A stretch of 20,000 nucleotides of DNA from Catajapyx aquilonaris (GCA_000934665.2 JYFJ02001568.1:56447-76446); one strand, 5' to 3'. Shown: positions 892 to 19,044, counted from the first letter of the stretch. Notes: generated by a model from the letters alone, not told the origin. Numbers and translations are program-made.

Positions 892-940
892 ATGAGTAGC
901 ACACGTGACTCTATCACTTCCACGGAGTCCACAAATTTGG
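892..940 (+). CDS. CatSper-zeta-like gene, coding exon 1 (MSSTRDSITSTESTNL)
   Basis: Acceptor ttttcag ends at 883 and ATG is at 892. Phase-1 donor GT at 941 is weak, and the following 102-nt intron is itself open and in frame. Confidence 0.5.
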
Positions 941-2403
941 GTCTATTGAACTGGCTGTTATCAGCATTGCATATCAGTATGTCACCACATTTTTGGCATC
1001 TTACAATAAGTAGATGTGTCATTATTGCATTGCTTCTTGCAGAAAGGTCCAAGCCGAAAGTGAGAAGAAATCTTCATGATTTTCTCGGTACTGGGTTATT
1101 GGGCGATGGTGGACTTGACATACCTGACAAGCTCTTTGAAAAGATTGTTGGACCAGGCGCCGCAACTGATCCGAGGAGGTCTGAGAGCGACTACAATAAA
1201 TCCGAAGGAACCACACAAAGTTCCGTAGATATTTCCAGTCTTTCGGACATGAGCAGAAAGACAACCTTTTATATGCCAGTAGTCAAAAAGGTTATTGGTA
1301 ACATTAGCATTGAAATCAACGTTAAAGCAGTTAATGACTCTTGGTTTTTACTCACAGAATTTCACTATGGATTGGACAGGAAGGTACCGAAGTCCTGGGC
1401 CAGATTGCACGTCCTTTCAGCGGTACACTGAGATTATTCGTGCTAAAGACGAAATAGAGGAGGAAGAGATGCACAAGTACGGCCTGACATTGGGATATGA
1501 ATTATTATGCATTGATTTCCTGTAGAATTTATAGGAGTTCCATCACATTATTTAGTTCCTGCAAATGCCATTGACTCGCTGATTTTTTGTTTGTTTTTTA
1601 GACTGAAAGCTCGCTCTTTGATCCCGGCACCAGCTGAAGGATATTTTCAGGATTGGCTACCACAGCAACACGATGGAGAACCTGTAAGTCATTGTCTCCT
1701 TTTGCACTTCAGTTCGTATCCCGGCTTGGGAAATGGTCAAGTCAACAATCATCTGGCTATACTTACTATAGTAGTCCATTGCAACAATGCAACAAAGGAA
1801 GTAACCTATATTTCAGCTGAAGCGTCGTATGAGGCGATTCTCCGCGATCTATCGCGCAGCTGCAAAGAGGAAATCACGCCAGCACAAGACAAAAGGTGAT
1901 AGCAAGGACCACGAAGAAGTGGAGGAGTACAGCGACTCTGACATCCCGCGACGCACGTCGATCTTAGACGACGAACCCATCGAGAAGCTAATTGAAGATG
2001 TCACGCACCCAGCAATCTTTCGAGGAATTGGGATGTCCCAGGTGAGATTGAACACGAAACTTAACCTAACCTAGACCGGGTCTTGAAAATAACCCCTGAC
2101 ATGACCTTTGACACAACCAGCTTCTTTTATTGACAGAATCACCACACTGACAAACTGATCCACCTGAAGAAGGTAGCAGAAGACAAAGAACACTTTGCGT
2201 TCTTACGCGACTTCGACGTGGCCCTGTCTGAAGACGTGCCGATTCCAGCCATGACACAGGTTTGCAAGGAATGCATACCAGTACTGGAGTCTGTTGTGTC
2301 GTACTACAAGAGAAACTTTGGCTCAGATCATCGTGTAACTCTCGAGGCGATGACCCGCCTTGAGGTTATCCAGGAGGAACTGGATGATTTGAAATCGTGT
2401 TAA
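892..2403 (+). CDS. Six-exon gene, about 329 aa, uncharacterised protein with a CatSper-zeta (TEX40)-like C-terminal domain
   Basis: Exons 892-940, 1043-1290, 1358-1476, 1602-1683, 1817-2041 and 2137-2403 total 990 nt. All five introns are GT..AG (102, 67, 125, 133, 95 nt) with compatible phases (1,0,2,0,0), joining five separate ORF-track fragments into one frame that ends in TAA at 2401-2403. The C-terminus DVPIPAMTQVCKECIPVLESVVSYYKRNFGSDHRVTLEAMTRLEVIQEE resembles the CATSPERZ C-terminus. The first exon and start codon are the least certain part (weak donor G|GTCTAT; acceptor TTTTCAG at 883 implies an upstream exon). Confidence 0.8.
1043..1290 (+). CDS. CatSper-zeta-like gene, coding exon 2
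   Basis: Acceptor cttcttgcag ends at 1042; donor AAG|GTTATT at 1291. Encodes ERSKPKVRRNLHDF...FYMPVVKK. Confidence 0.7.
1358..1476 (+). CDS. CatSper-zeta-like gene, coding exon 3
   Basis: Acceptor tttttactcacag ends at 1357; donor AA|GTACGG at 1477. Encodes NFTMDWTGRY...EEEEMH. Confidence 0.7.
1602..1683 (+). CDS. CatSper-zeta-like gene, coding exon 4
   Basis: Acceptor tgttttttag ends at 1601; strong donor CCT|GTAAGT at 1684. Confidence 0.75.
1817..2041 (+). CDS. CatSper-zeta-like gene, coding exon 5
   Basis: Acceptor atatttcag ends at 1816; donor CAG|GTGAGA at 2042. Encodes LKRRMRRFSAIY...GIGMSQ. Confidence 0.8.
2137..2403 (+). CDS. CatSper-zeta-like gene, terminal coding exon containing the conserved domain
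   Basis: Acceptor cttcttttattgacag ends at 2136. Encodes NHHTDKLIHLKK...ELDDLKSC* with TAA at 2401-2403. Confidence 0.8.
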   Translation, partial: NHHTDKLIHLKKVAEDKEHFAFLRDFDVALSEDVPIPAMTQVCKECIPVLESVVSYYKRNFGSDHRVTLEAMTRLEVIQEELDDLKSC

Positions 2404-11068: not shown

Positions 11069-11210
11069 ATGTCTTGCGGACCTCTGAGCCCATCCCTCAA
11101 AGACCTGCCCAAAGTGGCTCCGGATCTGAAGACCCAGCTGGAAGGATTCAATCCGGATAACATGAAGAAGGCGGCCACCCAGGAGAAGATTATTCTCCCA
11201 ACGGCTGAAG
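11069..11210 (+). CDS. cib: Beta-thymosin coding exon 1
   Basis: ATG at 11069; donor GAAG|GTGAGC at 11211. Confidence 0.95.
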
Positions 11211-14200
11211 GTGAGCCGCTCTTATACATGTTGGAGGATCTGTGTTGGTCCAGTACCCTGCACTTAATCCGATACATTTCAAACCCATAAATGTCAGTTT
11301 ATGGTAGTTTGTTGCACAGTCTGTGCAGTGTGCATGAATAGTCCTTGACAAAAAGGAAGCCAGAGAGGATGTGATAAGAGAGTTTCCTGCCTTCTTGGAA
11401 CTTGCCTTCTTGTGCTTACTTTTCAACTTGCATTCCTGACACGTATCAAAGTTTTTGGTTATTGATGTGAAAATGCCACGCAGCATTGGTTGCGTACACA
11501 CCATTGTTCTTACACATGAATGGTATTTTTACATCATCCATTGATTGCCTTCTGTGTGTATGCAGACCCTGAGACTTTTCTGGTTTTGCATGAGAATGAG
11601 ATTTCTGGTGGTTGTTAGCAAGGGTGGAGTAGTTAAGGGTGGAGTCCACATGGGTAATCAGTGTAGAAGAGGGGTGGGGATATCAGTGTTTCTTCTAGAT
11701 TTGTGTAATTTGAATTTGGACCCATTTCATTTGCATAAGATCTTAGGATTTTACATGTAGCACATACAATCACCTGTCCCAGGCACTTTGCATGTTTGTC
11801 TAGCCTCTTTGCCTGCCACGGCCCCCCCATTCTTCTTCTGATCCCTGTAGATGTGAAGCAGGAGAAGCAGCACAATGAGCTCATTCAGGGTGTGGAGACC
11901 TTTAAGCCTGAGAGGTTAAAGCGCACCTCCACCCAGGAAAAAATCGTGCTTCCCAATGCTGAAGGTAAGGCCGCCAAAACTAAAAAGAGTTAAGAACTCA
12001 CAAGTTTCCGGCAGTTCACCAAAATGGGGGTTGGTGCTATTTGATACCCTAACTTATACCTTCCTCTGCTTCGACGCTTTGGATATGGGCATGAAGCATG
12101 CGCATGTTAACTTATCAGTGGGGCTGGCCTTGTTTGTTTTGTGTGGCATTTGCCTTATTTCAATTTGTGAATTTGCAGATGTGGCCCAGGAGAAGAGCCA
12201 GCAGGCTCTGTTGAAGGGTGTGGAGGCTTTCGATTCAACCAAGTTGAAACATACTGAAACCAACGAGAAGAATCCCCTCCCTGACAAAGAAGGTGAGGTT
12301 CAAGTTCAATGCTCACCTTCAAGGATCTTCCCACATGTGCACTTGTGCAGATGCGTGGCAATATTTTATATTGGCATTGAGTTGAAATGCATGTTCTTTT
12401 TTGCAGCAATTGAAGTGGAGAAAGGTCAGCAGAAGCTGATTGCAGGCATCGAGGCTTTTGACCCTGCAAAGCTGAAGCATGCACAGACTGCGGAGAAGAA
12501 CACACTGCCTACTAAGGAAGGTATGCTCTAAGGATGATAAACAGTTCTCAGAATCAGCATAGAGGCATATTTACTGTAATTCAAGTCAGCCATGCAGAGT
12601 ACTACGTCTCTGATGAGGGTATTCAAGTGCAATGTACTCATGGAGATTTTTTTTGCAGGAGTCTTGACATATCAAGTACTTGCATTTCATGACTCATTAT
12701 TATTTTTGCCCTAGCATGTGGAGTGGAATACTAGGTTGCAACATGTAAACTGCAACATATGCAGGGTGAGTCAGAACTTCAGGACATCTCTAACAGTAAA
12801 CAAGGTGAAAGTGTATAGGAATAACATGGCAAGAAACGAGCTGTTAATTACACAGATGACAATGAATGTTTGGATATCTTGCTTTAGATGCATGTGGCAA
12901 CCAATGTTCAACCCTATCATGGAATGTATGCAATGCTAAGCACACAATCACAGCCCAAGTCATAAGTTTTTGTCATTGTCATCTATGTTGTTACCAGTTG
13001 ATGTCTTGACATATCTTACTCCTACATTTCATACTTGTTTTGGTCAAATCTAGCCACTGGTAGCTGGTTCACCTGGAGTTCCAACTCATCCTGTATAAAC
13101 TCTCAAATACCTGTCAAAACCCTGAAAGGGTTAAACCTGACCATAATTAGTTTTCATGGTGCATTCCACAACCCACTAGTGGGCCACAAGGACCCTCCAG
13201 GTTGGCAGTGATTTAAAAATCCAAGTCCTCATAGAATTATATTGGCTAATGACAAATATGAGGATAAGTGGTGAAAGTGGGCTGTAGGATTTTTTGACCA
13301 GGTCCACATCTGACAACAGACTAATTTTATGAGTAAATTTTGGTGTTGAGAGATTGATTTAGATTTTTCAACATGGATTGTGATGTGGTATAGTATTTGC
13401 ATGATGTAAATTAGAGCTTAGTGTGTTTACTTGTGCAAATGCGCCCTTGACACTTTAGTGTTGATGAACTTGGTTTCATTGCTCACTACCCTTTCCTAGG
13501 GCAATATCAAGGTGGGTTGTTTATTTTGCACAGGTGTTTGTTTGCAACAAAAGTAAATTGCTAATCCTCCGCAGGGATCAAGCAAGTTTAGTTGTGGATA
13601 AGTTTGTTGCATCTAGAGTTCATTAGTTGTTTAAATAGCAAGCTGAGGCTATGCCTGTGTCGCAAGGAATCAAGAAACTGCTTGAAATCTGATAAACAGT
13701 ACTGTTCAGTGCATAAAATTTTAGCGTTGCAGAAAGATTTTTTTTTTTAAGCTCATTTTATTGGGGAAAACTTTGATTTTTGTTTTGTTACTGAGGTCAC
13801 TGATATCATTGGATTTTGCATTTTTTTTTAAAACCTATGTTTTTACCACGGATAACTCGATTAAGGAATTTTTATATTTTAAATCAGCCTGGTTTAGTGA
13901 GTGGCAAGAAGGTCACTTGCTTTGTTTTAATTTGTTACACTTCAGGTTTGTCCTCAGCAGTGGGTCTAATGAAAACTTATGTTAAATAACTTTTATCGCA
14001 GTGCTTAAAATTGGTGCAATACTTGTCGGACAACTACTGTACTTGGTCTCAGTGACTGAGGAAATTACTGCAGAAGTCTGCTGTTGCAATGTTTAGGTCC
14101 TACTGTACAATCTTTGCACATCTTTTGAAGATCCCCCCAGAAAAGCAGGCATGACTGACTGTCGCAGGCTCATTTTCTAGACTTTTGGCTAATAATATTT

Positions 14201-18101: not shown

Positions 18102-18221
18102 ATGCCAAGTGCACCCGGCATTCCTAGGCGGTCACCCATCCAAGTACTACCCGGGCCCGACGTTGCTTAACTTCGGGGATCGGACGAGAACCGGTGCTTT
18201 CAACGTGGTATGGCCCTTGGC
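18102..18221 (-). rRNA. 5S: 5S rRNA gene, solitary, variant or possibly pseudogenic copy
   Basis: The reverse complement reads GCCAAGGGCCATACCACGTTGAAAGCACCGGTTCTCGTCCGATCCCCGAAGTTAAGCAACGTCGGGCCCGGGTAGTACTTGGATGGGTGACCGCCTAGGAATGCCGGGTGCACTTGGCAT (120 nt). The internal control region is intact (AGTTAAGC, GTGACCGC) and the gene is followed by CTTTTT. Confidence 0.93.
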
Positions 18222-19044
18222 GAAAGAGTGAGTGGATTGTGGGGGTACTTGGATCCAGCATGTGTGGGTATGTGTACTGCACAGTACGTATGACGACCGT
18301 CCACTGACACATTACATTAACTACAATCAATAGTGTTATTCCGCCCTCTCTGAAAGTCTCTCTGAGAAGTCTGAAGGTGCATCAGCCAGAGCTAATGACC
18401 AGATCCACATGCTTGGCGCACCATCAGGGATCAGGGTGTGGGGAGACAGCGAACTTTTCGCAAAATCTCACATTTGCAATTGTTTTCGGCTTCTCATTCA
18501 AATTTATGCATTTTAAACTTAACAGATGGAAAGAGATGCGACTCTTGTTGGATGAAGCATCCATGGTTTTACACTCAATATATGATGAAAATGTCTACGA
18601 TGATTCACAGCGTGCGTTGAGGGGATCGAGCACGTCCAGTCCCGCATAGGTCTGGGCGCCTTTTGCGAGCTGAAATTCATACTCTGGTTCCTCTTCAATC
18701 CTCGTGTAAATCTTTCGCCTTTTACTAAAGATTTCCGTGGAGAGGTACACTGTGAGTCTTATGTAATTTCTTGTCGCCTAGCAGGCGGATAAACAAATCG
18801 AAAGACAATACTCAAAGCTACGCAGGCGACACGGCAGGCGGACCACAAATGATTGGTCGGTGTGACTGCTCCAAGCTGCCGTGATACGTGCTCTGCGTCT
18901 CACGGTCTCAGGCCTCAGGTGGCACTTTAATTTGCTGTAATAATCACAATATACGAAATGGTTCTGTGCCATTTCCACACATGAAGTTGCTTGACTATAG
19001 TGCTTGTGGGGTCTACCCAGTCACCCACATAGATAACAAATTAA

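Follow-up and report, generated by a model that had tools for sequence, protein, structure and literature searches.

According to the available sections of the papers cited here, mammalian CatSper-zeta (CATSPERZ, TEX40) is a small, soluble, cytosolic protein whose conservation is confined to the C-terminal region (PMC5362262; PMC8147001), and it is an IQ-like site in this region that binds EFCAB9, a calmodulin-like, pH-tuned Ca2+ sensor (bioRxiv 10.1101/459487; PMC8147001). In the mouse protein, the IQ-like pair L174/Q175 is required for EFCAB9 binding (PMC8147001). Zeta, EFCAB9 and ARMH2 constitute a ternary module beneath the CATSPER1-4 pore, which determines how sensitive the channel is to pH and Ca2+ and how continuous the flagellar nanodomains are (PMC5362262; bioRxiv 10.1101/459487; PMC8147001; PMC12638846). 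Co-folding values of ipTM >0.75 are reported for other species in PMC12638846.

Zeta is described as mammal-only in the portions available of three of these sources (PMC5362262; bioRxiv 10.1101/459487; PMC8147001), and the original prediction for the locus considered below, namely that it encodes an arthropod homologue of zeta, was right in giving the subunit this status. The search basis in the section available of PMC5362262 was phmmer at E<1e-10 across 17 eukaryotes, and PMC10652287 lists the Ciona zeta as 'not found'. In several papers, evolutionary arguments start from the statement that zeta arose recently and in mammals only. The only report of a non-mammalian zeta that literature searches brought up is one sentence in the Methods of a paper of November 2025, in which an HMM search is stated to have found non-mammalian CATSPER-zeta missed by BLAST (PMC12638846, Supplementary Fig. 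2b; available in part); because this report already exists, the novelty of the present locus carries less weight. In the source table for Fig. 3 of the same paper, which was built from OrthoDB v11 and is represented here by part 9 and single rows, zeta is filled for mouse and empty in the non-mammal rows examined.

The distribution of CatSper in arthropods is patchy, as is also reported in PMC6660944. Within the available part of PMC12638846, CatSper genes are absent in all of the listed winged insects and in the decapods, Daphnia, tick, mite, spider and scorpion listed with them, near-complete sets are recorded for Folsomia and Orchesella, both springtails, while diplurans have partial sets, as do barnacles, the centipede Strigamia and Limulus.

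The window analysed here is a stretch of 20,000 nucleotides, and the locus in question lies on its plus strand at positions 892-2403. The claim that this region holds a six-exon, phase-consistent gene was borne out when the exons were joined in silico from the window, giving a CDS of 1026 nt that runs from ATG to TAA in one frame without an internal stop and encodes a protein of 341 aa. The five introns (66, 67, 125, 133 and 95 nt) are all of the GT...AG type and have pyrimidine-rich acceptors. Exon 1 (892..976, 85 nt) begins with the ATG at 892-894, which is the first in the open frame 850-1431, and ends at the donor ATATCA/gtatgt; since intron 1 is 66 nt long and in frame, read-through is also possible. 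Exon 2 (1043..1290, 248 nt), bounded by the acceptor cttcttgcag/ and the donor AAAAAG/gttatt, is Ser-rich and charged in composition and is predicted to be disordered. Exon 3 (1358..1476, 119 nt) has the acceptor ttactcacag/ and the donor GCACAA/gtacgg, and other splice sites would break its frame. Exon 4 (1602..1683, 82 nt) lies between the acceptor ttgttttttag/ and the donor GAACCT/gtaagt. Exon 5 (1817..2041, 225 nt) encodes a basic stretch followed by an acidic one and contains sites resembling those of basophilic kinases (RRFS, KRKS and RRTS, at model residues 184, 195 and 223). All six exons are on the plus strand; the five minus-strand ORFs beneath and around the gene gave no Pfam family.

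Exon 6 (2137..2403, 267 nt including the TAA stop at 2401-2403) carries the conserved C-terminal module. Its coding part, 2137-2400, specifies 88 aa, and the conserved domain, as delimited by the family alignment and the AlphaFold2 model described below, occupies 2191..2400 on the plus strand (exon-6 residues 19-88), with a P-x-P-x-M turn at 2239-2253. The peptide quoted in the original prediction is indeed encoded in this last exon, its core at 2233-2382 corresponding to exon-6 residues 33-82. The Ser-rich, acidic and basic region said to precede it agrees in composition (residues 1-253 are 32% charged and 17% Ser/Thr), although it is not of extreme low complexity. The Kyte-Doolittle maximum over 19 residues is 1.01, no transmembrane segment is predicted, and the 341-aa protein is accordingly expected to be soluble. 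Pfam searches with the five exon pieces returned no significant family. By its frame and splice sites, 892-2403 is very probably a real protein-coding gene.

When searched by itself, the exon-6 tail gave results in which tetratricopeptide repeat (TPR) proteins predominate. A HMMER scan of 1.84 billion representative proteins returned 207 matches at E<=1e-3, 150 of which were listed; most of the 207 are long proteins with 2-13 matched stretches, to exon residues ∼44-86, and TPR_10/TPR_12 were present in seven of the ten matches that were scanned, at E-values from 1e-29 to 1e-126. With Pfam, the exon matched TPR_12 as one unit at 12.7 bits (E 0.16), under a gathering cut-off of 30.1 bits, and in the ESM Atlas the rows at 0.77-0.78 are TPR_12 clusters. 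These exon-alone matches, taken by themselves, favour a kinesin-light-chain-like helix-turn-helix, and residues 44-86 do resemble one TPR_10/TPR_12 unit with its G-x-[DE]-H-x-x-T turn, although proteins with these domains contain tandem repeats whereas the window protein has a single unit. The top ESM Atlas cluster is unnamed, mostly chordate and of 104 members (0.83 for exon 6 and 0.84 for the tail of the hemichordate protein introduced below); neither query reached a score of 0.9 or found a named zeta cluster, and the chordate cluster is no more than a lead. A word-index protein search with exon 6 yielded 74 candidates, none at E<=0.01. Searches of the PDB covered 177,635 distinct sequences with rows recorded to E<=10, and within these limits exon 6 alone retrieved no CATSPERZ chain, its best rows being coiled coils of NEMO (E 0.04-0.13).

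Two of the proteins retrieved in the HMMER scan are of a different kind. P0024 is an uncharacterized protein of 379 aa from the hemichordate Ptychodera flava, matched at E 2.9e-9 with exon residues 5-82 on its residues 295-372, and P0122 is a hypothetical protein of 235 aa (LSAT2_014690) from the annelid tubeworm Lamellibrachia satsuma, in which exon residues 10-83 fall on 157-230. With a P0024 match at this E-value against 1.84 billion proteins, the last exon is not an open frame that arose by chance. Over the ∼75-78 residues of the module, identity to the window protein is 40% for P0024 and 32% for P0122, and each of them matches in one stretch that lies at its very C-terminus, the place that the module also occupies in the window protein. 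An alignment of the three tails (window exon 6, P0024 and P0122; hereafter A1) has 14 invariant columns, L10, D16, H19, P35, P37, K44, E45, P48, V54, Y57, G62, T68, E70 and D83, all of which are intact in exon 6. With A1 as profile, P0024 and P0122 were the only proteins among the 150 listed HMMER matches to span the family-specific half of the module, the next reaching 7.6 bits, and they were likewise the two that passed among 2614 candidates in a word-index protein search. A metagenome scan with A1 gave 399 pattern matches and no confirmed relative.

Only the last ∼75 residues of the three proteins align. The N-terminal parts of P0024 and P0122 are, like that of the window protein, disordered and acidic or Ser-rich, and comparison with them revealed no homology to exons 1-5. 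The combination of unalignable N-terminal parts and conserved tails indicates an architecture common to the three proteins, in keeping with the claim that a variable, charged N-terminus precedes a conserved C-terminus. An I-R-K-W motif stands directly before the module in P0024 and P0122, whereas the window protein is without it. Pfam found no TPR match at E<=10 in either relative, so that the TPR flavour is peculiar to the window sequence and is not a trait of the family. These alignments place the C-terminal module in a small family of invertebrate proteins, whose other members to date come from a hemichordate and an annelid tubeworm.

Searched against the PDB, the A1 profile placed CATSPERZ at ranks 1 and 2 (9ubw_K at E 1.2e-5 and 7eeb_K at 1.5e-5), with rank 3 at E 0.11 and 17 rows in total. 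The alignment is gap-free, with profile positions 30-86 on mouse residues 127-183, and scores 28 bits. P0024 alone also retrieved CATSPERZ, as the top two of three rows (E 0.018 and 0.024), and P0122 alone had it as the first of 11 rows (E 0.11), with CYP2C9 next at 0.16. The combined profile of P0024 and P0122 (A2) had CATSPERZ first at E 2.5e-5, as did the profile of window and P0122 (A3) at E 0.0022, 50-fold better than P0122 alone. CATSPERZ was thus ranked first in five of six PDB searches, the exception being the window exon alone. Its E-value drops as members of the family are joined, as would be expected if the homology is real, and the comparison of 0.0022 with 0.11 indicates that the window sequence itself improves the CATSPERZ score. 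Because exon 6 alone is without a CATSPERZ match, its membership in the zeta group would be transitive, by way of its match to P0024.

The mouse chain displays, without gaps, the same P-x-P-x-M ... Y ... G-x-[DN]-H-x-x-T-x-E pattern, so that the P-x-P-x-M turn and the helix junction Y...G-x-[ND]-H-x-x-T-x-E are common to CATSPERZ and the family. In a count by eye, the window protein shares ∼12 of 46 aligned residues with mouse CATSPERZ, about one quarter, including P-x-P-x-M, Y, G, H, T and E. The shallow family of three sequences and the score of 28 bits count against the link; homology of the tail to the zeta C-terminus (mouse ∼127-183) is nonetheless likely. The proposal of a CatSper-zeta homologue therefore stands with regard to a related C-terminal module, for which the profile E-value is 1.2e-5, but the single exon does not by itself match CATSPERZ. 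The check that was named for it, whether searches find TPR or kinesin-light-chain repeats only, likewise gave a divided outcome that leans towards the proposal: the exon alone mainly finds TPR_10/TPR_12, whereas the family profile has CATSPERZ first and no TPR or KLC chain at E<=10.

In an AlphaFold2 model (pLDDT 73 on average and 87-91 over residues 41-80), long helices at exon-6 residues 36-61 and 66-87 follow the P-x-P turn. Foldseek with this model against the PDB gave no match at E<=0.001, the best being at E 0.79, and the matches were generic helical bundles. VIA-align gave a similar picture: in the wide search 13 of 48,161 chains had Z>=8 (best Z 8.6) and were helical bundles, in a second look at 720 chains the best (Z 9.0) was a designed protein, and no zeta chain was listed in any of these fold searches, so that the structure weighs neither for nor against a zeta-like fold.

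Several other readings of the tail have to be weighed against homology to zeta. It could be a lone TPR_10/TPR_12-like helix-turn-helix of kinesin-light-chain type whose likeness to CATSPERZ arose by chance or convergence; the exon-alone matches described above speak for this, most of them to multi-stretch long proteins in which TPR_10 and TPR_12 recur. It nevertheless seems unlikely, given that the TPR_12 score falls far short of the Pfam cut-off, that only one of the three family members has a TPR match (Pfam, E<=10), and that the six PDB searches, in five of which CATSPERZ came first, contained no TPR or KLC chain at E<=10. In addition, the P-x-P turn and the helix that precedes it lie outside the TPR-like stretch and inside the CATSPERZ alignment. 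A coiled coil of the NEMO/optineurin UBAN type, binding ubiquitin chains, would account for 11 of the 13 PDB rows obtained at E<=10 with the exon alone, which are NEMO (IKK-gamma) CoZi/UBAN chains with weak local likeness to exon residues 38-86. The defining UBAN motif is D-F-x-x-E-R, where the window protein has N-F-G-S-D-H; moreover, the E-values (0.041-0.13) are not significant and with the family profiles no NEMO row is found at E<=10. With a best E-value of 0.041 and rows that vanish with the family profile, an identity with NEMO/UBAN is scarcely credible and was rejected.

A third reading concerns the locus as a whole, which might be a decaying or never-transcribed copy in which exon 6 alone reflects an ancestral coding sequence. 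The lack of homology in exons 1-5 would fit such a copy, as would the absence of the window protein from the protein collections searched and of any AATAAA or ATTAAA in the 1 kb that follows the stop codon. Against it stand the single frame kept over six exons, with five canonical introns and no stop, and the 14 of 14 invariant A1 columns intact in exon 6, and it is accordingly regarded as quite improbable. In a fourth reading, the module is related to the zeta C-terminus while its CatSper role was lost or never held; the helical protein would then act as adaptor for a different EF-hand protein of calmodulin-like type, or for a flagellar or cytoskeletal partner. The IQ-like Leu-Gln pair is not retained: mouse L174/Q175, in the region of CATSPERZ that holds the EFCAB9-binding IQ-like site according to the available text (PMC8147001), aligns with Ala-Met in the window protein, Val-Gln in P0024 and Ser-Ala in P0122. 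The motif has been defined in mammals only, so that the mismatch lowers the claim to identity with zeta without excluding it. A different task would also be in keeping with the length of the protein (341 aa, compared with 194 aa for the mouse CATSPERZ chain), with its unrelated N-terminal part, and with the insect-like character of the adjacent thymosin-beta gene, given the lack of CatSper genes in the winged insects listed in the available part of PMC12638846. The same portion of that source, on the other hand, records CatSper sets in other species of the relatives' phyla, given as Saccoglossus and Lingula, and CatSper genes in non-pterygote hexapods, barnacles, a centipede and Limulus, so that an arthropod host would be compatible with CatSper; an adaptor with another job is therefore considered rather unlikely.

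Under the preferred reading, that of a zeta subunit, the window protein resembles the described CATSPERZ chains (7eeb_K, 9lwo, 9ubw_K and 9ubx) in being small and soluble with a variable N-terminus and a conserved helical tail. The 341-aa protein would be a zeta-type adaptor of the sperm CatSper channel, in which the C-terminal helical hairpin may clamp EFCAB9 of the same species, together with ARMH2, onto the channel from its cytosolic side, and the variable N-terminus could provide lineage-specific regulation, for instance by phosphorylation at RRxS-type sites. That the protein works as a CatSper-zeta subunit in the host is, on sequence grounds, favoured to a modest degree. No CatSper gene is present within the window.

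The host gene and its hemichordate and annelid relatives would extend the zeta family to invertebrates, and the gene is probably the first arthropod zeta candidate. A broader proposal, for and against which the chances are about even, is that zeta, far from being an invention of mammals, dates back to the bilaterian ancestor or earlier, evolves too fast for BLAST and has been kept in the hemichordate, annelid and host lineages, such that the Ca2+/pH gate formed by EFCAB9 and zeta, perhaps with ARMH2, would be part of the ancient CatSper core and the present gene the first arthropod zeta. Zeta tails in these three lineages would shift the origin of the cytosolic gate to early animals and would provide invertebrate sperm physiology with a candidate EFCAB9 partner.

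If the zeta-subunit reading is right, the host should belong to an arthropod lineage that has kept CatSper. The suggestion of a fuller CatSper complex in 'insect sperm' is doubtful in the strict sense, since the winged insects listed in the part available of PMC12638846 are without CatSper genes, and a winged-insect host would be predicted to lack them too. An arthropod host, perhaps a hexapod or another pancrustacean, is plausible from a multi-repeat thymosin-beta gene on the plus strand at ∼11087-12528, the sole protein-coding signal in the window besides the gene at 892-2403. Its 16 named database neighbours comprise 14 insect proteins and two rows of one bivalve, and identity of the first repeat to the N-termini of insect thymosin-beta is 68-77%, compared with 34-37% for the bivalve.

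The C-terminal module encoded by exon 6 of the zeta-like gene (window 892-2403, + strand) and the corresponding tail of P0024, a 379-aa protein from the hemichordate Ptychodera flava, retrieve the same top cluster in the ESM Atlas, with scores of 0.83 and 0.84, respectively. This cluster is unnamed, comprises 104 mostly chordate members, has a 462-aa representative and is assigned no Pfam family; it may represent non-mammalian vertebrate relatives of the module. Approximately 20 residues N-terminal to the conserved module, P0024 and P0122 (a 235-aa protein from the annelid Lamellibrachia satsuma) both contain the motif I-R-K-W, at residues 286-289 and 143-146, respectively, which is absent from the window protein in an alignment of the three tails. 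A similar sequence, I-R-K-Y, is found in the mouse zeta chain and was aligned by HMMER to the I-R-K-W of these relatives, with a negative score (-3.3 bits).

Intron 1 of the zeta-like gene (window 977-1042), located between exon 1 (892-976) and exon 2 (1043-1290), is 66 nt in length, a multiple of three, and contains no stop codon, such that the reading frame is intact whether the intron is spliced or retained. Retention in the transcript would add 22 residues that include a hydrophobic stretch, for which the maximum 19-residue hydropathy is 1.42.

Further downstream on the + strand is a multi-repeat thymosin-beta (ciboulot-like) gene (window 11087-12528). Its repeat exons number four or more (approximately 11087-11209, 11850-11975, 12178-12306 and 12409-12528) and match Pfam PF01290 with E-values down to 1e-20; the closest named proteins are in most cases from insects, and the gene is the sole pointer to the taxon of the host. 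An antisense ORF (11193-11528, - strand) lies inside the thymosin gene region and shows a weak match, under the cut-off (E 3.3e-4), to a CxC5 cysteine cluster of the type linked to KDZ transposases.

At about 5032 and about 16779 the window contains short stretches of N, totalling 17 N. Each adjoins a tract that translates as poly-Pro or poly-Gly, and both appear to be gaps in the assembly at homopolymers. The window also contains full-length genes for 5S rRNA (18103-18221, - strand; 100.9 bits) and U5 snRNA (18679-18789, + strand; 75.4 bits), which lie on opposite strands with 457 bases between them. Several genomes of invertebrates and fish are known to show comparable linkage of 5S and snRNA genes.
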